Positions 22,541 to 33,386 of a stretch of DNA of 64,000 bases are shown in pieces (the first letter of the stretch is position 1; each line of letters starts with the position of its first letter). The stretch comes from Acholeplasmataceae bacterium (GTDB taxonomy: Bacteria > Bacillota_I > Bacilli_A > ML615J-28 > CAG-698): the NCBI GenBank assembly GCA_012838705.1, contig DUOT01000109.1, forward strand, positions 8,578 to 72,577, given 5' to 3'. Below the pieces are notes generated by a model. That model searched no databases. It saw only the letters and a program-made list of their open reading frames with translations, and had not been told where the DNA came from. The position numbers were made by a program, and so were the translations under genes.

Positions 22541-22568
22541 TTGACAATTAATGCAATTTTAGTATAAT
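22541..22568 (+). promoter_or_regulatory. Sigma-A promoter of the opp operon
   Basis: TTGACA, 16 bp spacer, TATAAT. Confidence 0.5.
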
Positions 22569-22622
22569 ATTTACATACACTATGATATAAGTGTTAATAT
22601 TAATGATATGGAGGAAGAGAGA

Positions 22623-24482
22623 ATGAAATTAGTTAAAAAACTATTTCTTTTAGCATTATTTGCTCTTTCTGCTGTCGCTTTAGTAGGGTGCGACAAGAAG
22701 GGTGCAAATACACTCATCGTTGGTACTCCAGAAATGAACCAAGATTTCATCAGTGGATGGGATAACAATGCATACGATATGTATGTACGTGACTTAATCC
22801 ATGGTTATGGAACTCTTGTGGAGACTGAACTTGGTGAGTATGTTTGGGACTTAGAAGCTGTGTTAGCTAAAGCTCCTGAAACACAAACGGATTCTGAAGG
22901 TAATAAAACATATAAATTTACCTTACAAGAAGATTTAAAATGGAATAATGGTGAGCCTATCAATGCTAAACATTATGTGGCTAATATGTTATTATATTCA
23001 TCTGCAGAATGGGAAGAAATTTCAACTGCAGGGGCAACAGCTGGTTATGATTTAGTAGGATATGCAGCTTATCATGATGGTGACGGAAGCGATGATTACA
23101 CTGTATTGAATGTTCCTTTTGAAGGTGTTAGATTACTAGGCGATTATCAATTCTCATTCACAATTGCTGAAGAAAGTCTACCTTACTTCTATGAGAAAGT
23201 TCTAGTAGCTGCTAGCCCTATTTATTATCCAAATTATTTACCTGGATATGATGTAAAAGATGATGGCGAAGGAGCATACTTTACTACTACTGATACTTCT
23301 AAAAAAATGGTTGACCTTTTAGAAGAAACAGTTCTTGATACAGAAACTGGTCAACGTTATATGCCTTTAGTAACTTGTGGACCTTACAAACTTGTAAGTT
23401 TTGCAAACCAAGTTGCAACATTAGAATTAAATAAACATTTTAAAACTAATTATGAAGGCAAAAAACCAACAATTAAAAATATTCAAATTAAAGCTATTAA
23501 CCAAGAAACTGACGTTGAGCAAGTAATTGCTGGTACAGTAGACATCGTTAACGGTGTTATTGAAGCTGAAAAAATCAATGCAGCAAGAGAAGATGAAAAT
23601 ACAGATATGGTTTCTTATCCACGTAATGGTTACGGATACCTAGGATTTGCGAATTATTGGGGACCTACTAAATATGCCGAAGTACGTCGTGGCTTAGGTT
23701 ACTTAGTAGACCGTCAAAAATTCCTAACTCAATACTTAGGTGGATTCGGATCATTAGTTAATGGACCTTATGGTGAAGCTCAATGGTTCTACCAAGAAAC
23801 TAAAGATGAGTTAGAAGAAAAATTAACAAACTACGTATATGATATTAATAAAGCTAACGAAGAATTAGATAAGAGTCCATACAAATTTGAATCTGATGGT
23901 GTAACACCATGGGATGCTTCAAAAGCAAAAGCTGATGGATCATACTTACGCTATAATGCTAATAAAGAACCACTATCAGTATATCACTGTGGTACTCCAG
24001 ATAACCCAGTAACTGACATACTTCAAATGGAATTTGAAGCTAATGCTTGGAAAGCAGGGGTTAAATATCGAATCGATATCGCAACTTTTGATGTATTATT
24101 ACAACACTATGGCAGTGGTTATTCAATGTCTGATACTGAAAGAAAATATCACATGTTTAACCTAGCTACTGGTTATACTTCTGCATATGATCCATACTAT
24201 TACTTCCATTCTGAATGGGCTGGAAAAACTAACCCACTAGGAGTGGTAGATAGTGAACTTGATGAATTAACTGTTAAGTTAAGAAGAGTGGATAGTAACG
24301 ATAAAGACAAATTTAAAGAAATATTTGTTCAAGTGGTAGATAGATGGAATGAAATTTTACCAACTCTTCCATTATATTCTAACGAATATTTCGATATTTA
24401 TAATAAGAGGGTTAAGGGATTAAAAACTAGTCCAGTTTGGACATGGGCTAATGATATTTGTGATTTAACTCTTGAAAAATAA
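22623..24482 (+). CDS. oppA: Oligopeptide ABC transporter substrate-binding lipoprotein (SBP family 5)
   Basis: Signal peptide with lipobox LVGC. SBP_bac_5-like length. RBS GGAGGAAGAG before ATG 22623. Confidence 0.85.
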   Translation: MKLVKKLFLLALFALSAVALVGCDKKGANTLIVGTPEMNQDFISGWDNNAYDMYVRDLIHGYGTLVETELGEYVWDLEAVLAKAPETQTDSEGNKTYKFTLQEDLKWNNGEPINAKHYVANMLLYSSAEWEEISTAGATAGYDLVGYAAYHDGDGSDDYTVLNVPFEGVRLLGDYQFSFTIAEESLPYFYEKVLVAASPIYYPNYLPGYDVKDDGEGAYFTTTDTSKKMVDLLEETVLDTETGQRYMPLVTCGPYKLVSFANQVATLELNKHFKTNYEGKKPTIKNIQIKAINQETDVEQVIAGTVDIVNGVIEAEKINAAREDENTDMVSYPRNGYGYLGFANYWGPTKYAEVRRGLGYLVDRQKFLTQYLGGFGSLVNGPYGEAQWFYQETKDELEEKLTNYVYDINKANEELDKSPYKFESDGVTPWDASKAKADGSYLRYNANKEPLSVYHCGTPDNPVTDILQMEFEANAWKAGVKYRIDIATFDVLLQHYGSGYSMSDTERKYHMFNLATGYTSAYDPYYYFHSEWAGKTNPLGVVDSELDELTVKLRRVDSNDKDKFKEIFVQVVDRWNEILPTLPLYSNEYFDIYNKRVKGLKTSPVWTWANDICDLTLEK

Positions 24483-24501
24483 TAACTTAAATAAACAAAA
24501 G

Positions 24502-24535
24502 GAGAGAGTTACCTCTCTCCCTTTGTTTAGTTTTA
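24502..24535 (+). terminator. Partial terminator/attenuator hairpin after oppA
   Basis: GGAGAGAG-ttac-CTCTCTCC followed by cTTTGTTTAGTTTT. Confidence 0.5.
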
Positions 24536-24589: not shown

Positions 24590-24610
24590 AAGATTTAGTT
24601 GGAGGTTTAT

Positions 24611-25606
24611 ATGGGAAAATATTTATTAAAAAGATTCTTATCTTTAATTCCTGTTGTATTTATAATTTCGATAATATTATTTGTTATTGTAAAGACAGTT
24701 CCTGGTGATCCAGTTGAAATTATGTATTATGAACAATTAAATAGTCCTGAAATGCAAAGATATCCAGAAAAACGTGAAGAATTCTATCAAAAAAAATGGG
24801 AAGAGATGGGATTAAATGATTCGCTTATTGTTCAATATCTTCGCTGGATGGAAAGAACATTAAAAGGGGATTTAGGATATTCGCATTGGAAAAAGGCTAA
24901 GGTAAAAGATGTTATTTCAGAACCTTTAAAAGTATCAATAATTATCAATATTATTTCGATTACACTTGCTTTTGTTCTTGCGATAATAATTGGAATAAAA
25001 TCTGCAGTGAAGCGGTACTCTTTTTATGACACCTGGTGGCAGGTATCATCCTTAGTATTTACTTCAATGCCATCATTTTTTATCGGAATGGGGTTAATTT
25101 TTATATTCCCTGTTACTTTAAGAATATTTCAGTTTGGTGGTTTACCAGCCTTAAGAGGTGGAGAATCATTTTTCTACGCAATATTTAAATGGGCTGAGCA
25201 TTTATTCTTACCGGTGCTAACTCTTACAATTGGAAGTTTAGCCGGGACAATACGTTATGTACGTAATGCAATGATTGAAATTTTGAAAAAAGATTATATA
25301 AAAACTGCACGTTCCAAAGGATTAAAAGAAAAAGTAGTTATATATTCACATGCATTCCGTAATGCTTTAATTCCTGTTGTTACAATTGTGTCTGGAAGTT
25401 TAGTAGCTATTTTTGGTGGATCAGCAATAACTGAATCTGTGTTTGCAATAAACGGTATTGGACGTTTATTAGTAGATGCCCTTAATGCCCGTGATTTCTC
25501 AATTGTATTAACTATGAACCTATTTTATGCTGTTTTGGGTTTATTAGCAAACGTAATTATGGATATAAGTTATGCAATGGTTGATCCACGCGTTAAACTA
25601 GAATAG
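24611..25606 (+). CDS. oppB: Oligopeptide ABC transporter permease
   Basis: MGKYLLKRF N-terminus and an ABC-TM1 (BPD_transp_1) domain. Start ±1 nt. Confidence 0.85.
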   Translation: MGKYLLKRFLSLIPVVFIISIILFVIVKTVPGDPVEIMYYEQLNSPEMQRYPEKREEFYQKKWEEMGLNDSLIVQYLRWMERTLKGDLGYSHWKKAKVKDVISEPLKVSIIINIISITLAFVLAIIIGIKSAVKRYSFYDTWWQVSSLVFTSMPSFFIGMGLIFIFPVTLRIFQFGGLPALRGGESFFYAIFKWAEHLFLPVLTLTIGSLAGTIRYVRNAMIEILKKDYIKTARSKGLKEKVVIYSHAFRNALIPVVTIVSGSLVAIFGGSAITESVFAINGIGRLLVDALNARDFSIVLTMNLFYAVLGLLANVIMDISYAMVDPRVKLE

Positions 25607-25618
25607 GGGGTAGAATAT

Positions 25619-27889
25619 ATGAATAACAATCAAAATTTTTGGAGCAAAATTTGGTCATCAATAAAGGATTTATTTGTTCGTCTTTTTGGAATTGGAAAAT
25701 CAAAAGATAGAGCAACTTCTGTTCTTGAAGAAGAAGAAATAGTAAGCCCCTCAAAACAAATATTTAGAAATTTTATTCGCAATAAAGTTGCAATAATAGG
25801 TCTTACAATCTTTGTTGCTATCGTATTATTTGTTGTTATTGGTAGAGCTGTTATTGACTTTGATCATCGATATACTGAGAGTTCACAAATCTATATCGAG
25901 CCCGGAACAGATCACTTAAAAATACCAAAAGGTTTAAAAAAATCTGGTATTAAGGTTGTAAAGGATTTTGAAGGCAATGACCAATATCTAATGGGTGTTG
26001 GAAATGCTTTTACTATTGCAATTTCTAATGATAATAAAATATATGTTTGGGGAGCTAATGAAGAAAAAATTAAAAAAGTTCCTAAAGAAATTCAAGAAAA
26101 TGCAGATAAAATAGTACAACTTGCAGTTGGTGCAGACCATGCAGTTGTTCTAACGAGTGATGGAAAGCTTCTTGCTTGGGGTTCTAATGGTCAACAACAA
26201 GCACAGATTCCAACATTTAATATGGATACAGACGATTTCTATGGTTTATATAAAAAATCTATTGAAGCATATTTTAAACCAGAAGTTCGTTATTTGTATC
26301 CAGATGATTTAATTACAACAATTGAAGAAGATCCAATAAAAAAAGTTGTAGCTGGATATCAATATACAAGTATTCTCACTGAGAGTGGAATCATTTATTC
26401 TTGGGGAAATACTAAAGAAGTACGTATTTCTGAAGAACGCTATTCTTATCGTTTTACGGAAATAGAAATAAAATATGATGGAGAAAAATTGACTTGGAAA
26501 TATATTGGTCCAAATATTACATTTAATATTGCTACTAACGAAGAAATAATAGATTATTATAATCTTCCAACTGAAGAAGACCGTGAAATTGAATTAACAT
26601 ATTCAAAAAATGCTTTATCTTGGCGTTATGATGATGAAGAAGAATGGACTACTCTAGCAACAAAAGAAGATATTCTTGAATATATTAAACCAAATATTAA
26701 AAAGGTTACTAATATTTATGCTTTAGAGTCCCATATGGTTTACGAGTTTGAAGATAATAGTATTTTCATTATGGGTCAAGCTGGATCTATTATGTCTCAA
26801 CTTACTGAAGACTTACGAGTAGAATTATTCAAAAGTGCTGAAGAACGTGGTTATCGTGTTGAAAAAGTTGTTGGAACTGAACGTAATGCGTTTGTATTAA
26901 CATCTGAAGGAAATATCTTTGGTTGGGGTGAATCAACAACTGAAGCATTGCCGTTAATTACTATTCCAGATGAAGTTAAAAATAGTAAAATTGTTGATCT
27001 TGTAAGTGGAAAATATCATTTAGTAGCTAGAGATGATAAGGGTAATGTATATACTTGGGGAAGTAAAAATTCATTAAATCAATTAGACATTCCAAAGAAG
27101 CTTGCAAAATCAGAAAAGATTATATCTAATTATTTTATAAATTATTCAATAGGTGAAGATGGCTCTATCCAAGCATGGGGTCATAAAGGATATATATTCG
27201 GTACCGATTTAGCTGGTGCTGACGTGTTTAAACGTATTATAGCTGGTGGTGCTATGTCATTATCATTAGCACTAGTTGCAGTTGTTGTATCATTAATCAT
27301 TGGATTAATTATTGGTTTAGTAGCTGGATTCTATGGTAAATGGGTAGACAATTTATTAATGAGATTTGGTGAAATTATCTCCGCATTCCCATTCTTACCG
27401 TTGGCGATGACTCTTGCTAAGATTGTACAAGAGGCAGAAATAGATGAAACATATCGTGTATATATGATAATGGTTGTCCTAGGATTACTTTCATGGCCAG
27501 GTCTTGCACGTTTAGTACGCGGTCAAATTCTAAAAGAACGCGAACAAGATTTCGTATTAGCAGCTAAAGCATTAGGTATAAAAGAAAAACATATTATTAC
27601 TCGTCATATTTTACCTAATGTCATTAATGTTGTTATTGTTAGTACAACATTAAGTTATGCTGGTGCATTATTAACTGAATCTGGATTATCATTCCTTGGA
27701 TTTGGCGTAAGATATCCAAAACCATCTTGGGGTAATATGTTAACAGGAACACAAAGCATGACCGTATTAAGATATTATTGGTGGGCATGGATTATTCCTG
27801 CAATCTTCATAATTTTAACTGCCCTAAGTGTTAACTTGGTAGGTGATGGTTTACGTGAGGCAATGGATCCAAAGGCGAATGAAAGATAG
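25619..27889 (+). CDS. oppC: Oligopeptide ABC permease OppC with an extracytoplasmic RCC1-like beta-propeller of about 470 aa inserted after TM1
   Basis: OppC N-terminus and TM1, then seven repeats ending in xWGxN/xWGS (VWGAN, AWGSNGQQQ, YSWGNTKE, FGWGESTTE, YTWGSKNSLNQ, QAWGHKGY), then a canonical OppC TM domain. Confidence 0.8.
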   Translation: MNNNQNFWSKIWSSIKDLFVRLFGIGKSKDRATSVLEEEEIVSPSKQIFRNFIRNKVAIIGLTIFVAIVLFVVIGRAVIDFDHRYTESSQIYIEPGTDHLKIPKGLKKSGIKVVKDFEGNDQYLMGVGNAFTIAISNDNKIYVWGANEEKIKKVPKEIQENADKIVQLAVGADHAVVLTSDGKLLAWGSNGQQQAQIPTFNMDTDDFYGLYKKSIEAYFKPEVRYLYPDDLITTIEEDPIKKVVAGYQYTSILTESGIIYSWGNTKEVRISEERYSYRFTEIEIKYDGEKLTWKYIGPNITFNIATNEEIIDYYNLPTEEDREIELTYSKNALSWRYDDEEEWTTLATKEDILEYIKPNIKKVTNIYALESHMVYEFEDNSIFIMGQAGSIMSQLTEDLRVELFKSAEERGYRVEKVVGTERNAFVLTSEGNIFGWGESTTEALPLITIPDEVKNSKIVDLVSGKYHLVARDDKGNVYTWGSKNSLNQLDIPKKLAKSEKIISNYFINYSIGEDGSIQAWGHKGYIFGTDLAGADVFKRIIAGGAMSLSLALVAVVVSLIIGLIIGLVAGFYGKWVDNLLMRFGEIISAFPFLPLAMTLAKIVQEAEIDETYRVYMIMVVLGLLSWPGLARLVRGQILKEREQDFVLAAKALGIKEKHIITRHILPNVINVVIVSTTLSYAGALLTESGLSFLGFGVRYPKPSWGNMLTGTQSMTVLRYYWWAWIIPAIFIILTALSVNLVGDGLREAMDPKANER

Positions 27890-27897
27890 GTGAGAAG

Positions 27898-28899
27898 ATG
27901 AAAACACTATTAGAAATAAATAACCTACATACATACTTTTCAACAAAACGAGGTCTTGTAAAGGCTGCCAATGGAGTAACGTTAAGAGTTAATGAAGGCC
28001 AAACTTTAGGTATTGTTGGGGAAAGTGGTTCTGGTAAAAGTGTTACTGCAATGTCAATATTACAACTTTTTGAAGAAAATCAAAAAATTCATGATGGTGA
28101 AATTATCTTTGATGGAAAAGTTCTTTCTGAATTACCAGAAGACGAACTTCGTCATATTAGAGGTAATGACATTTCAGTAATTTTCCAAGAACCGATGACA
28201 AGTTTAAACCCAGTATTTAAAGTAAGTAGACAAATAAGCGAAGTTTTGATGCTTCATCAAAACTTGACAAAAAAACAAGCATATAAAAAAGCAATTGAAT
28301 TATTAGCTGATGTTGGTATTTCCAACCCTGAAAAAGTAGTTGACCAATATTCGTTCCAACTATCAGGGGGAATGTGTCAAAGGGTTATGATTGCAATGGC
28401 TCTTGCATGTCGTCCTAAGCTGTTAATTGCAGATGAACCAACAACAGCACTTGACGTAACAATTCAAGCGCAAATATTAAAACTTATGAATGATTTGAAA
28501 AAGCAATATAATACAGCGATTATTTTCGTTACTCACGACTTAGGAGTAATTAATGAAATGGCTGATGATGTTGCGGTTATGTATTGCGGGCAAGTAGTTG
28601 AATCAGCTTCCGCAAAAACAATCTTTGGTGAAAATCCAACATATTCACATCCTTATACAGAAGGGTTAATGAATTCAATTCCAAGATTAGATACACCAAA
28701 GGGTAAAAAATTAGAAGTAATACCAGGTTCCGTACCTCATCCATTAAATCTACCTGTAGGATGTAAATTTGCACCACGATGCAAATATGCTACAGATAGA
28801 TGTCGTGAGAAAGAAATTGACTTCTTTGAAGTTGAACCAAATCATTTCGTAAGATGCTTATATCCAAAGCGAGGTGCAAGAGATGAAGCAATTGAATAA
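27898..28899 (+). CDS. oppD: Oligopeptide ABC transporter ATP-binding protein
   Basis: Walker A GESGSGKS, signature LSGGMCQRV, and a C-terminal oligopeptide-type extension. Confidence 0.9.
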   Translation: MKTLLEINNLHTYFSTKRGLVKAANGVTLRVNEGQTLGIVGESGSGKSVTAMSILQLFEENQKIHDGEIIFDGKVLSELPEDELRHIRGNDISVIFQEPMTSLNPVFKVSRQISEVLMLHQNLTKKQAYKKAIELLADVGISNPEKVVDQYSFQLSGGMCQRVMIAMALACRPKLLIADEPTTALDVTIQAQILKLMNDLKKQYNTAIIFVTHDLGVINEMADDVAVMYCGQVVESASAKTIFGENPTYSHPYTEGLMNSIPRLDTPKGKKLEVIPGSVPHPLNLPVGCKFAPRCKYATDRCREKEIDFFEVEPNHFVRCLYPKRGARDEAIE

Positions 28900-30793
28900 G
28901 GAACCTTTAATTGAAATTAGAAAGTTGAAAAAGTTTTTCCCATTAAAGAAAAAACATCCTTTCCAACTCAAAAGATATTATGTTCGTGCTAACGAAGATA
29001 TTTCACTAACAATATATAGAGGGGAAACTTTAGGGCTAGTTGGTGAAAGTGGTTGCGGAAAGTCAACATTAGGTCGTGTTATCCTTCAACTATATTCACC
29101 TACAAGTGGTAGTGCCCTATATTATGGAGTGCCTTTACGTGAAGCAAATCCAAAATATGTTATAAGGGAAATTAAAAAACTTCCAAAATATCAAAAAAGG
29201 GCAAGTAATGCATATAAAAAGTCTTTAAGAGTAGACGAAAGAATTAAAAAACTAAAAGAAAAAGCACAAAATATCGATAGAGAAGAATTTAAAGCACAAG
29301 TTGCAGCAAAATTACAACAATATGATATTAAGCTTGAAGAATTAAAACTACAAGAAGAAAACTATCGAGCACAAACTATTGAAGCAATAAAAAAAGCTAC
29401 TAATGAGTATAAGGCTTTTATTAAGGATAATACTAAAATAAAATCATTTGATCCTAATTGGGAAGATGATGTTAATAACGTTCTAAACATGCTTGCAAAT
29501 GATGATGGAAGAACTAGTATTATAGATTATATCGAATTATTGCAAATCCCTAACAAAGAAGCAATAAAAAATTATAAAAAAGTTATTGTTGCTCAAAGCA
29601 AACAAGATGCTATTGAAGGGAAAAAAGCACAAGTAAATGTTACATTTACTGACCGCTTAATTAAATACTTAGAATATAGATCTAAAGAATTGAAGAAAGA
29701 AGCTTCCCGTCAATTACGTGAGGGAAGTAGAACTGCCGGCGAATATATTCTTGAAGCCGACTTACCTATTATCTCTCAGTTAATGCTTGAAGAAGAGTTA
29801 ATACATCGTCGAAACTTTGCTAGAAGAAAGCATATTAAAAAACTGAAAGAACAAGATGCGGAAAAAAATAGAGAAGTAATAGAGAGATTGGAAAAAGAAA
29901 TTGTTGATGGAGAAAAACGTCAAAAAGAAGTATTAGAAGAACTTGAAAAATATCATTTTAAAGAAGTTCTTCCAATTACTGAACGTTGCTTAAATCCTGA
30001 ATATCAAAAGAAATTAGAAAGAAATCGCGAATATGCAATTAACTTACAAAAGTTAAATAAACACGAAATGCGAGTTCTTCGTCAAAAATTACAAATGATT
30101 TTCCAAGATCCATATTCTTCACTTAATCCTCGTATGACAGTAGGGCAAGCAATAAGCGAAGCTGTTGTTGAGCATGGATTATTCCCTAAAAACTCTCCAG
30201 AACTAGAACAATATGTTATTGATGTTATGGCGAAATGTGGTCTTGACCATTATATGGTTCACCGTTACCCACATCAATTCTCTGGAGGTCAAAGACAAAG
30301 AATTGTTATTGCTCGTGCTCTAGCATTACAACCAGAATTCGTAGTTTGTGACGAATCAGTAAGTGCTTTGGACGTTTCTATCCAATCACAAATCCTAAAC
30401 TTACTTGATGAATTAAAGAAGGATCGAAACTTAACGTATTTATTTATATCTCATGACTTAAGTGTTATTAAGCATATAAGCGATCGAATTGGTGTAATGT
30501 ACTTAGGTAATGTTGTTGAGTTGTGTGAAGCAGAAACATTATATGAAAATCCATTACATCCATATTCGAAAGCATTAATTTCTGCTATTCCAACAACTAG
30601 TCAAGAGAAGAGGGAAAGAATTATTCTTGAAGGAGATATTCCATCAAATATTTTCCCACCTTCTGGATGTAAGTTTAGAACTAGATGTCCATTAGCTCGT
30701 GGTATATGTGCGAAGGTTGAACCAAAATTAGAAGAGGTAGAACCAGGTCATAAGGTAGCGTGTCATTTCTATGAAGAAACGAAAAACTTATAA
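28883..30793 (+). CDS. oppF: Oligopeptide ABC ATP-binding protein OppF with a K/E-rich insertion of about 320 aa between Walker A and the Q-loop
   Basis: Walker A GESGCGKST, then a long charged coiled-coil-like segment, then FSGGQRQRIVIARAL, Walker B and a C-terminal Cys motif. Start at ATG 28883 after RBS GAGGTG. Confidence 0.85.
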   Translation: MKQLNKEPLIEIRKLKKFFPLKKKHPFQLKRYYVRANEDISLTIYRGETLGLVGESGCGKSTLGRVILQLYSPTSGSALYYGVPLREANPKYVIREIKKLPKYQKRASNAYKKSLRVDERIKKLKEKAQNIDREEFKAQVAAKLQQYDIKLEELKLQEENYRAQTIEAIKKATNEYKAFIKDNTKIKSFDPNWEDDVNNVLNMLANDDGRTSIIDYIELLQIPNKEAIKNYKKVIVAQSKQDAIEGKKAQVNVTFTDRLIKYLEYRSKELKKEASRQLREGSRTAGEYILEADLPIISQLMLEEELIHRRNFARRKHIKKLKEQDAEKNREVIERLEKEIVDGEKRQKEVLEELEKYHFKEVLPITERCLNPEYQKKLERNREYAINLQKLNKHEMRVLRQKLQMIFQDPYSSLNPRMTVGQAISEAVVEHGLFPKNSPELEQYVIDVMAKCGLDHYMVHRYPHQFSGGQRQRIVIARALALQPEFVVCDESVSALDVSIQSQILNLLDELKKDRNLTYLFISHDLSVIKHISDRIGVMYLGNVVELCEAETLYENPLHPYSKALISAIPTTSQEKRERIILEGDIPSNIFPPSGCKFRTRCPLARGICAKVEPKLEEVEPGHKVACHFYEETKNL

Positions 30794-30965
30794 AAAATTA
30801 ACCCCTGAAGAAGAAGCACAAATAAGAAAAAAACTTCAGGAAACTCCATTAGAAAAAAAAGATACTTTTGCGTTAATAATATCAATGTTAATTACATTGT
30901 TACCAAGGGTACTTTTGATTCTAGGAATCTTTGTGTTCTTTATATGGCTCTTCTTTCTTCGATAA
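30771..30965 (+). CDS. Possible small single-TM protein overlapping the oppF 3' end
   Basis: 64-aa ORF with a C-terminal hydrophobic helix. No clear RBS; could be spurious. Confidence 0.2.
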   Translation: MKKRKTYKKLTPEEEAQIRKKLQETPLEKKDTFALIISMLITLLPRVLLILGIFVFFIWLFFLR

Positions 30966-30973
30966 TATAAAAA

Positions 30974-31012
30974 AGGCAGTAATTTCTATTACTACCTTTT
31001 ATTTTTTTGTAA
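30974..31012 (+). terminator. Terminator of the opp operon
   Basis: GGCAGTAAT-ttct-ATTACTACC followed by TTTTATTTTTTT. Confidence 0.55.
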
Positions 31013-31075: not shown

Positions 31076-31531
31076 ATGATTACTTTATATACATCTCCTA
31101 GTTGTCTTTCATGTCGTAAAGTAAAAAAGTATTTTGATAAATATAATATCAAATATATTGAAAAGAATATTATGCATACACGTTTAACACGTGATGATAT
31201 TTTCAATATGCTTGTTAATAGCGAAAATGGATTTGAAGATATTATTTCTCCACGTTCAAAAGTCTTTAAAGAAGCAAATGTGGATTTTAATAGTATGACA
31301 ATACATGAACTTGTTGACTTTATCGTCGACAATCCAACGATATTGAAACGTCCAATCATCGTTACCGAAACAGATCTTCAAGTGGGTTATAATGATGATG
31401 ATATTACATTATTTTTACCACCTGAAATACGTAATCGTGAATGTAGTTTCTGTTTAGGACCTCATGAAAATTGTGATTATGTAAAAGCATTAAAAGTAGA
31501 TAATGAATCTAGTAAAGAGGCTGTTGAGTGA
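31076..31531 (+). CDS. spx: Spx-family (ArsC-fold) global regulator with a Cys-rich C-terminal extension
   Basis: MITLYTSPSCLSCRK (CxxC), RPIIV and LQVGYNDDDI. About 20 extra C-terminal residues: RNRECSFCLGPHENCDY. Confidence 0.8.
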   Translation: MITLYTSPSCLSCRKVKKYFDKYNIKYIEKNIMHTRLTRDDIFNMLVNSENGFEDIISPRSKVFKEANVDFNSMTIHELVDFIVDNPTILKRPIIVTETDLQVGYNDDDITLFLPPEIRNRECSFCLGPHENCDYVKALKVDNESSKEAVE

Positions 31532-31607: not shown

Positions 31608-33386
31608 ATGAAGTTTATAAAAAGATTATTACTTGTTGTACTCTTTATTTTCTCACTTAATATATTAGTGGGTTGCAACAATAATAAAATAGACACTCTA
31701 TTAGTTGGCGTACATGAAATCGAAGAAAATTTTTTAGTAAATGCTAATAATTATGTAAGTGATTTAGTACATGGTTATAGTACATTAGTAAAAACAGAAA
31801 ATGGTGAATATGTTTGGGATACAAATATCGTATTAACTAAAGCCCCAGAAGTAAAATTTGATGATGATGGCAACAAAACATACCATTTTACACTCCGTAA
31901 AAATCTAGAATGGAATAATGGAAGTAAAATTACAGCTAAAGATTATGTTGCAAGTATTCTCCTATTTTCTTCATCAGAATGGAATACTTTATCACCATCT
32001 AATGTTGGATCTAAGCTTTTAGGATATAATGAATATCGAAAAGGAATAAAATCAAAAAATAACTATACGTCGATACACGAAATTTTTAGAGGAGTAAGAT
32101 TAACAGATGACTATACATTTTCCTTAACAATAGATAAGAAATATATCCCTAATTTTTATGAATCAGCTTTTGTTGCAGCAAAGCCAATATATCTTGAATC
32201 TTTTCTTCCTGGATTTGATATTAAAGATGATGGTGAAGGGGCATATTTGAAATCAAGTGATTCATTAAATGTATTAGAGCTTCTACAAATCAATGTTTTT
32301 AGTGAAAATGGTGAAAAACTAAATCCAAAGGTTACTTGTGGACCATATAATTTTATTAGTTTTGATAAAAATAATATTTTTCTTGAAGTAAATCCTCATT
32401 ACCAAGGTAATTATGAAAAGAAAAAACCGAAGATAGAAATAATCGAAATTAAAGAAATAACACCATTAACTGATGTCGAACAAGTGATTGCTGGCTCTGT
32501 TGATTTAGTTATAGGAATAAATGATCCCAATAAAATAAAGATTGCGAAAGAAACAACTAATGTAGGATTATGCAATTACTTAGAAAATGGATTTAGATTT
32601 ATTGGAATTGCTAATGATAAAGAACCAACTTCATATCCAGAAGTAAGAAGAGCAATTGCTTATTTAATAGATCGTAATAAATTATTAACTTATGAAGCAT
32701 CAGGTTACGGTGCAATAATTAATGCACCATATTCTAAAGATGATTGGTATTATTTAGAATCTAAAAATGAGTTAGAAAGTAAACTTGCAACTTATTCTCA
32801 AAGTATTAACAGTGCAAATATAGAATTAAATATGAGCCCTTATAAATATGAAGAGGATGGTGAAACTTTATATAACCCTGAAAAGGCTGCTAATGATTAT
32901 TTTCGTCATGATGCCGATGGAAACATATTAGAAATCACACAATGCATTAAAACAAAAAACATGTTATCTCTCGATTTAAGTTTACATGCTTGGAAAGTTG
33001 GAATAAAGTTTCAATATGATGAAGTGGAAAGTGAAGAATTTATTGAAAGAATAAATGAAAAACATTATCATCTTTATGAGCTTTCAATAAGCTTTGATGA
33101 CTTTGATCCATATTTATATTGGCATAGTGATGTTGTGGATACTGATTTAATGGCAGTAAGTGATATGATTATTGATGAAATGGTTCTGAAAATGCATAGG
33201 GCGCAAAGTAAAGAAGATTTTGTAGAAGCATTTATTAATTTCTCAACAAGATGGAATCGAATATTACCATGTATTCCTTTATATTCTTCAGAATATTATG
33301 ATGTATATAATAAAAAGGTTAAAGGATTAAAGACAAATGCTCATTGGACTTGGGCAAATGATATTTGTGATATTTACATAGATTAA
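31608..33386 (+). CDS. Second oligopeptide-type substrate-binding lipoprotein, an orphan OppA paralog
   Basis: Lipobox LVGC. Collinear with the first SBP (VTCGPY, VEQVIAG, ...WTWANDICD C-terminus). Confidence 0.8.
   Translation: MKFIKRLLLVVLFIFSLNILVGCNNNKIDTLLVGVHEIEENFLVNANNYVSDLVHGYSTLVKTENGEYVWDTNIVLTKAPEVKFDDDGNKTYHFTLRKNLEWNNGSKITAKDYVASILLFSSSEWNTLSPSNVGSKLLGYNEYRKGIKSKNNYTSIHEIFRGVRLTDDYTFSLTIDKKYIPNFYESAFVAAKPIYLESFLPGFDIKDDGEGAYLKSSDSLNVLELLQINVFSENGEKLNPKVTCGPYNFISFDKNNIFLEVNPHYQGNYEKKKPKIEIIEIKEITPLTDVEQVIAGSVDLVIGINDPNKIKIAKETTNVGLCNYLENGFRFIGIANDKEPTSYPEVRRAIAYLIDRNKLLTYEASGYGAIINAPYSKDDWYYLESKNELESKLATYSQSINSANIELNMSPYKYEEDGETLYNPEKAANDYFRHDADGNILEITQCIKTKNMLSLDLSLHAWKVGIKFQYDEVESEEFIERINEKHYHLYELSISFDDFDPYLYWHSDVVDTDLMAVSDMIIDEMVLKMHRAQSKEDFVEAFINFSTRWNRILPCIPLYSSEYYDVYNKKVKGLKTNAHWTWANDICDIYID

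Follow-up and report, generated by a model that had tools for sequence, protein, structure and literature searches.

A predicted RCC1-like beta-propeller in the first extracytoplasmic loop of an OppC-type importer permease

In DppBCDF of Escherichia coli, the region between the first and second transmembrane segments (TM1 and TM2) of the permease DppC is periplasmic, and the binding protein DppA caps DppB and DppC there (PMC12136057). An extra periplasmic domain is present in another type I importer, MalFGK2-MalE, in which the MalF P2 loop binds MalE with a micromolar dissociation constant throughout the cycle (PMC6906923). Here, we analyzed a 64,000-nucleotide stretch of DNA (the window) from an Acholeplasmataceae bacterium (assembly GCA_012838705.1, contig DUOT01000109.1, positions 8,578 to 72,577 of the forward strand), and in particular its oppC gene, whose product is the OppC permease of an Opp/Dpp-type (type I) ATP-binding cassette (ABC) importer. 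The permease core has the fold of the solved OppC and DppC structures from E. coli (8Z21 and 8Z1V) and Mycobacterium tuberculosis (8J5Q and 8WD9), which lack the RCC1-like beta-propeller predicted here between TM1 and TM2. Compared with the solved Opp/Dpp importers, the system in the window has ~420 extra OppC residues, an OppF ATPase lengthened by a 305-amino acid insertion, and a small membrane protein as its sixth component. The oppC gene and its parts are as follows (window positions; evidence in parentheses; ORF, open reading frame; AF2, AlphaFold2):

25619..27889, plus strand: OppC-type permease with inserted propeller, 756 amino acids (ORF, Pfam, NCBIfam, AF2 model)
25619..25843, plus strand: cytoplasmic N-terminal tail (residues 1–56, with 10 lysines or arginines) and TM1 (residues 57–75) of OppC, OppC_N (Pfam, hydropathy, alignment with DppC)
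25949..27190, plus strand: predicted seven-bladed RCC1-like beta-propeller including its inserts, residues ~111–524 (Pfam, AF2, structure matches)
26192..26323, plus strand: helical insert between blades 2 and 3, 44 amino acids, residues 192–235 (AF2 model, family alignment)
26417..26692, plus strand: insert between blades 3 and 4, 92 amino acids, residues 267–358 (two tandem ~40-amino acid beta-beta-beta-alpha units)
27191..27253, plus strand: conserved OppC motif ahead of TM2, KGYIFGTDLAGADVFKRIIAGG, marking where the insertion ends on its C-terminal side (aligned counterpart in E. coli DppC: HLLGTDDVGRDV)
27254..27889, plus strand: permease core from TM2 to TM6, BPD_transp_1 (Pfam, hydropathy, structure matches)

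A GGGGG ribosome-binding site lies 8 nucleotides upstream of the oppC ATG. The 756-amino acid product exactly matches an NCBI protein, 'ABC transporter permease subunit [Acholeplasmataceae bacterium]', an entry derived from a metagenome-assembled genome, and the identical protein was found on eight contigs. Pfam assigned residues 43–84 to OppC_N (PF12911; 33.7 bits, cut-off 23.9) and residues 562–753 to BPD_transp_1 (PF00528; 115.5 bits, cut-off 26.4). Hydropathy analysis placed only one TM segment ahead of the repeats (residues 57–75, containing IIGLTIFVAIVLFVVIG) and the following one at residues 550–568. Both approaches agree with the original prediction, made from the sequence before this analysis, that TM1 is followed by a segment of about 470 amino acids (residues 76–545, window positions 25844–27251) and then by the OppC membrane core. 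Moreover, the six-helix permease fold superposes on the solved OppC and DppC structures. The closest NCBIfam model was Opp4C (NF045476), of which the protein is not a member, scoring 320.9 bits against a curated cut-off of 350; thus, the transported substrate cannot be deduced from the Opp4C model.

We found that OppC from which residues ~111–510 had been removed in silico aligns in one piece with residues 15–298 of E. coli DppC. The propeller occupies the place of about 12 DppC residues (PPAWQEGGSMAH) just before the conserved 'LLGTDDVGRD' motif, and the insertion is bordered by a proline motif after TM1 and by the 'xxGTDxxGxD' motif ahead of TM2. The distance from TM1 to the GTD motif is ~32 residues in E. 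coli DppC, as compared to ~450 in the propeller-bearing OppC; the loop length of about 60 amino acids that had been assumed for ordinary OppC proteins was therefore an overestimate with respect to DppC. The positively charged residues are distributed unevenly, with 10 lysines or arginines in the N-terminal tail versus 2 in the 20 residues past TM1, which fits an orientation with the N terminus inside. Because of this charge bias and of the end-to-end homology to DppC, whose TM1–TM2 region is periplasmic, the placement of the segment in the first extracytoplasmic loop, as originally proposed, is well supported. The propeller is inserted cleanly in the TM1–TM2 connection.

The fold of the segment was assessed with profiles and a structural model. 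Two Pfam repeat families matched OppC above their cut-offs, RCC1_2 in five stretches (E 9.8e-31, 105.2 bits, cut-off 22) and RCC1 with 38.8 bits (cut-off 21.7). WD40_RLD (PF25390), which models the whole domain, matched in two stretches with 119.3 bits and stayed under its cut-off of 150, probably because the 44- and 92-amino acid inserts interrupt the domain. The AF2 model, which was computed from an alignment of 18 family members and reached a mean predicted local distance difference test (pLDDT) score of 83.9 and a predicted template modeling (pTM) score of 0.75, contains seven strand triplets (residues ~121–148, 161–191, 236–266, 359–389, 410–440, 454–484, and 494–524) that close into one propeller. 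A Foldseek comparison with the PDB aligned ~470 columns with UVR8, RPGR, RCC1, and the RCC1-like domains (RLDs) of HERC2 at E values of ~1e-11 to 1e-12, and the domain was closest in structure to RCC1-type propellers rather than to WD40, Kelch, or others. Together, the profiles, the model, and the structural matches agree with the proposed RCC1 identity, and the segment is predicted to fold as a seven-bladed RCC1-like propeller. The claim that all seven repeats end in xWGxN or xWGS held only in part: there are seven blades in the fold, but only six of them end in WG (W144, W187, W262, W436, W480, and W520), while blade 4 ends in 'IFIMGQAG', with MG instead of WG.

Three inserts decorate the propeller. 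The insert of about 90 amino acids that had been noticed between blades 3 and 4 was recovered with a length of 92 (residues 267–358), and its two tandem units share the consensus ..LQW[KR]Y......W..L.T.EEI; we found no solved relative of this ~40-amino acid unit. The other two are the helical insert of 44 amino acids between blades 2 and 3 and a stretch of 20 amino acids after blade 4. Pfam searches of the 92- and 44-amino acid inserts returned sub-threshold noise only, and both inserts are missing in the short members of the family (~600 amino acids), for example, in the Caldicoprobacter protein P0018. A relative of 1072 amino acids, P0037, carries ~10 copies of the LQW[KR]Y unit at the same site between blades 3 and 4, which makes the unit an expandable module. 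The two units and the helical insert are probably lineage-specific decorations of the wall-less clade. P0037 is one of the giant variants of the permease, the others being P0038 and P0017 (1142–1143 amino acids). P0038 contains other insertions, including a segment of ~230 amino acids that looks helical or coiled-coil by sequence.

The propeller permease is part of a conserved cassette, composed of a substrate-binding protein (SBP), OppB, OppC with the propeller, OppD, OppF with a long insertion, and a small membrane protein, which is carried by many anaerobic Bacillota as well as by Acholeplasmataceae-like bacteria and certain spirochaetes. A HMMER search, exhaustive over 1.84 billion representatives, yielded at least 48 clusters (50% identity) combining the propeller with the OppC core among its best 150 matches. 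Sixteen relatives of 750–785 amino acids, 51–61% identical to the protein in the window, have the same architecture, and more distant short forms were found in addition. When each species was represented by a single genome, the scan identified at least 21 carriers. The carrier taxa comprise Erysipelotrichaceae, Tissierellaceae, Oscillospiraceae, Lachnospiraceae, Peptostreptococcales, Clostridium sp. Cult1, and Treponema, and the spirochaete carriers include three Sphaerochaeta or Sphaerochaetaceae genomes besides Treponema. The gene order SBP-OppB-OppC(propeller)-OppD-OppF is the same in all carriers, and a cognate SBP gene immediately precedes the permease genes on every contig that is long enough; orthologues of the SBP in the window (SBP1) lie upstream of every complete propeller-OppC locus. 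None of the loci examined had a propeller-OppC detached from the opp cassette, and their flanks vary, without conserved neighbours that would hint at a substrate. A gene for a ThsB-like TIR-domain protein (Thoeris-type defence family) is located a few genes past the cassette in the two closest relatives with long contigs (L084:18345–18863 and L085:12772–13290). In Subdoligranulum sp. (L009:8001–9973), the propeller-OppC gene is split into ORFs of 383 and 331 amino acids, which may reflect a frameshift or pseudogene or an assembly error.

Within the window, the operon and its surroundings consist of the following features in addition to oppC:

22541..22568, plus strand: promoter-like site TTGACA-16-TATAAT, sigma-70-like, 12 of 12 positions matching (consensus match only)
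22608..24482, plus strand: SBP1, substrate-binding lipoprotein, 624 amino acids, SBP_bac_5, lipobox LVGC (ORF, Pfam, NCBIfam)
24501..24520, plus strand: G+C-rich hairpin past the SBP1 gene, possible intra-operon attenuator (pattern match only)
24599..25606, plus strand: OppB-type permease, 335 amino acids (ORF, Pfam, NCBIfam)
27898..28899, plus strand: OppD ATPase, 333 amino acids, with a C-terminal four-cysteine motif (ORF, Pfam, NCBIfam)
28874..30793, plus strand: OppF ATPase, 639 amino acids, with an insertion of ~305 amino acids (ORF, Pfam, alignment)
29129..30049, plus strand: OppF insertion, residues ~86–392, ~305 amino acids, rich in charged residues (between the strand after Walker A and the Q-loop)
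30771..30965, plus strand: small membrane protein, 64 amino acids, MKKRKTYKKLTPEEEAQIRKKLQETPLEKKDTFALIISMLITLLPRVLLILGIFVFFIWLFFLR, overlapping the end of oppF (family profile, homologues)
30971..31000, plus strand: hairpin and T run past the small ORF, likely operon terminator (pattern only)
31608..33386, plus strand: SBP2, second substrate-binding lipoprotein, 592 amino acids, 45% identical to SBP1 (ORF, NCBIfam, pairwise comparison)

Besides OppC, the operon encodes the partner permease OppB, a family-5 SBP, and a pair of ATPases of the oligo_HPY type, an arrangement kept in relatives. The top NCBIfam match of SBP1 was Opp4A with 90 bits; this is far under the cut-off of 650 and indicates a distant subfamily. 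A gene of the Spx/ArsC family (31076–31531, plus strand) lies between the operon and SBP2, and an ArsC-family gene occupies the same position in the relatives L084 and L085, in which no equivalent of SBP2 was seen. Both ATPases carry a four-cysteine motif at the C terminus (~28720–28830 for OppD and ~30640–30760 for OppF). The OppF motif, C-x6-C-x7-C-x18-C (counted from Cys to Cys), has the spacing of E. coli DppD, whose [4Fe-4S] cluster is ligated by Cys284, Cys290, Cys297, and Cys315 (PMC12136057).

Two further components of the cassette accompany the propeller. A homologous OppF insertion was detected in 18 of 19 loci with a propeller-OppC but in none of 27 other Opp loci (Fisher p ~7e-12), although these counts, like those for the small protein below, are clade properties and not phylogenetically independent events. 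OppF measures 499–608 amino acids in 18 of the 19 propeller loci (639 in the window) versus 248–371 in the 27 others. The insertion in the window is homologous to the ~190-amino acid OppF insertion of the cassettes from Clostridia and spirochaetes, and it has no Pfam family, as searches gave sub-threshold noise only. The small membrane protein belongs to a family of ~65 amino acids in which the N-terminal half is charged and the tail hydrophobic, with the motif ..EK.D..A(L/M)IIS....P; D31, A34, and P45 are invariant. With a profile that had been built from most of the positive loci, we detected it in 17 of the 18 propeller loci that extend far enough, as compared to 0 of 59 other Opp loci. Its homologues form at least 314 clusters, of which those named by their source are all 'hypothetical protein'; no Pfam match was obtained for the clusters and no NCBIfam match for the small protein. 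All four homologues that were sampled stood behind a long OppF and a propeller-OppC. We rejected the idea that the propeller, the OppF insertion, and the small protein form an obligatory unit, as two loci separate them: in L013, the propeller is present, OppF is short, and the small protein is absent, while L092, a close relative lacking the propeller, has the small protein (L092:3946–4146) and a short OppF without insertion.

Long TM1–TM2 loops are not restricted to the propeller family. At least 52 further representative OppC clusters have 150–650 amino acids of non-RCC1 sequence between TM1 and the GTD motif, and none of five such loops that were sampled matched Pfam. The TM1–TM2 loop appears to be a hot spot for the gain of extracytoplasmic domains. 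To see whether such permeases belong to the propeller system, we examined P0104 (L086:6001–7884). Its loop is unrelated, and its locus encodes a 797-amino acid SBP, an OppF of short length, and two small membrane ORFs that differ from the one in the window, which makes P0104 a separate case. In another unusual permease, P0022 (836 amino acids), an Opp-type permease core (residues 137–335) is fused to a C-terminal M28/M20 peptidase (residues 636–824), outside the TM1–TM2 loop.

What might the propeller do? The propellers of RCC1, BLIP-II, UVR8, and RPGR were among its top structural matches, and solved RCC1-type propellers are protein-binding platforms, as in the pairs RCC1-Ran, BLIP-II-beta-lactamase, UVR8-COP1, and RPGR-PDE6D. 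This property, the insertion beside the SBP docking site, and the precedent of MalF P2 lead us to favor, tentatively and by analogy, a role as a platform that docks or retains the lipoprotein SBPs (SBP1 and SBP2 in the window), although we consider this somewhat less than probable. The propeller would be an accessory protein-binding domain belonging to the transporter. From its predicted position next to the OppB-OppC surface that is capped by the binding protein, it could recruit and position the membrane-anchored SBP1 and SBP2, holding them at the translocator throughout the transport cycle. Because the carriers comprise wall-less, thick-walled, and diderm bacteria, the last being Sphaerochaeta and Treponema, the partner is unlikely to be peptidoglycan or a host surface and more likely to be a component of the transport system. 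Several points weigh against docking. The conserved residues of the propeller are mostly structural (WG, G, H, and P), and we identified no conserved surface patch in the family alignment. The MalF P2 precedent differs in both fold and position, and no such domain is needed for SBP docking in ordinary Opp systems. Furthermore, the variable decorations would also be compatible with a surface-exposed ligand-binding role, and docking leaves the co-occurring OppF insertion and small membrane protein unexplained.

Substrate handling is a different possibility, in which the propeller captures, filters, or funnels peptides or another oligomer to the SBP or the pore, comparable to the gating propellers of the prolyl-oligopeptidase type. 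The domain adjoins the entrance of the translocation pathway, and the SBP is only distantly related to characterized OppA, so that its substrate is not predictable. However, a dedicated SBP is always present, and RCC1-type propellers are not known to thread peptides through their axis; we regard this role as unlikely. Somewhat more doubtful still is an adhesin or binder of environmental ligands, such as a host, prey, or polymer, that anchors the cell, or else the importer, at a source of nutrients, which resembles the adhesin-like function of the original prediction. It draws on the direct exposure of the domain at the cell surface of the wall-less Acholeplasmataceae, on the frequent occurrence of RCC1-repeat propellers in large bacterial surface proteins, with Gram-positive anchors, Flg_new, FN3, and TIG domains in more distant matches (P0020–P0033), and on the variable loop decorations in the clade, from 2 to ~10 copies of the 40-amino acid unit and the coiled-coil insert of P0038. 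The conserved cassettes argue otherwise. The same core propeller is kept in Sphaerochaeta and Treponema, two diderm genera in which it would reside in the periplasm, and in thick-walled Clostridia, where it would lie under the wall, so that among the carriers only the wall-less lineage exposes it at the surface; it never occurs apart from the opp cassette in the examined loci, and Pfam searches of OppC and its inserts matched no carbohydrate-binding or adhesin family. Given the lineage-specific decorations, the propeller may nevertheless serve an additional function at the surface of the wall-less Acholeplasmataceae.

The OppF insertion and the small membrane protein, left aside by docking, could instead form a regulatory or signalling unit with the propeller. 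Situated in the OppC-OppF half of the importer, this unit would couple an external cue to the ATPase or to a cytoplasmic partner. The co-occurrence of the three accessories across propeller loci speaks for such a unit, as does the pairing of DppC with DppF in E. coli (PMC12136057). The same co-occurrence is nonetheless largely a property of the clade, the features are separable, OppF of Mycoplasma has long insertions without a propeller in OppC, and Pfam detected no signalling domain in the window proteins and inserts; we thus give this reading only a small chance. We judge equally improbable a new class of decorated Opp importer, made up by the three accessories together, whose propeller binds another protein in place of, or besides, the SBP, such as a host protein, a carrier of peptide signals, or a protease secreted by the cell or its neighbours, with occupancy relayed through the membrane to the ATPase insertion so that extracellular proteolysis or sensing is coupled to uptake. 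Last, we considered that the architecture might be an artefact or a decaying fusion, that is, an assembly chimera or a non-functional insertion. The split gene of Subdoligranulum points in this direction, but the ORF in the window is intact, with its ribosome-binding site and its identical copies on other contigs, and the fold prediction is confident. Moreover, this architecture recurs at 30–60% identity in dozens of independent assemblies from different phyla, which indicates purifying selection. This conservation rules out an assembly chimera or artefact, and we find a decaying fusion hardly credible.

Our literature searches on RCC1 in combination with OppC, ABC permeases, oligopeptides, or Mycoplasma loops returned nothing relevant. 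The combination of a propeller with OppC, its TM1–TM2 position, and the six-gene cassette are new in that none is described in the searched literature. What is already known is that the core is an ordinary OppC/DppC and the propeller an ordinary RCC1-type fold; their Pfam matches are in public databases, so that the architecture has been visible there but uninterpreted. Known RCC1-like domains, including those of HERC2 (RLD3), UVR8, RPGR, RCC1, Ats1/Kti13, and the bacterial extracytoplasmic BLIP-II of Streptomyces, form a separate protein or a terminal domain. Unlike these, the OppC propeller sits within a loop of a polytopic membrane protein and contains three inserts, including a novel tandem mini-domain. 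At its extracytoplasmic site, guanine nucleotide exchange factor activity is not expected. The ectodomain of the plant receptor kinase CRINKLY4 offers another comparison, but it is eukaryotic, belongs to a single-pass signalling kinase, and has no demonstrable common descent with the OppC propeller.

The resemblance to the enlarged Opp loops of Mollicutes, suggested in the original prediction, stands insofar as Opp subunits are enlarged in these wall-less bacteria as well and their OppF has an insertion at a comparable place. In the NCBIfam profiles from Mycoplasma mycoides syn1.0 (MMSYN1_0165-0168), OppC has 307 positions, OppB 388, OppD 561, and OppF 649; thus, it is mainly the ATPases OppD and OppF that are enlarged, and OppC, with only 307 positions, has no propeller. 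The OppF in the window matched the Mollicutes OppF profile with 279 bits, and the window proteins are far below the cut-offs of those models.

Together with the OppF insertion and the small protein, whose family numbers at least 314 clusters, the propeller defines an importer type of six genes, which offers a well-defined target for structural and transport studies and, in wall-less bacteria, a conspicuous surface-exposed domain. Folded accessory domains are rare in the permeases of type I importers, and MalF P2 is the textbook case, which has shaped the view of SBP docking. The OppC propeller resembles MalF P2 in being an additional folded extracytoplasmic domain in such a permease. However, MalF P2 is immunoglobulin-like, comprises ~185 amino acids, and lies between TM3 and TM4, in contrast to the RCC1-type fold, ~415 amino acids, and TM1–TM2 position of the propeller; with fold and position both different, the two are related by analogy only. 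The OppC propeller would thus represent a second, unrelated solution, found in Clostridia, Erysipelotrichaceae, and Acholeplasmataceae-like bacteria of gut, rumen, and digesters and in some spirochaetes.

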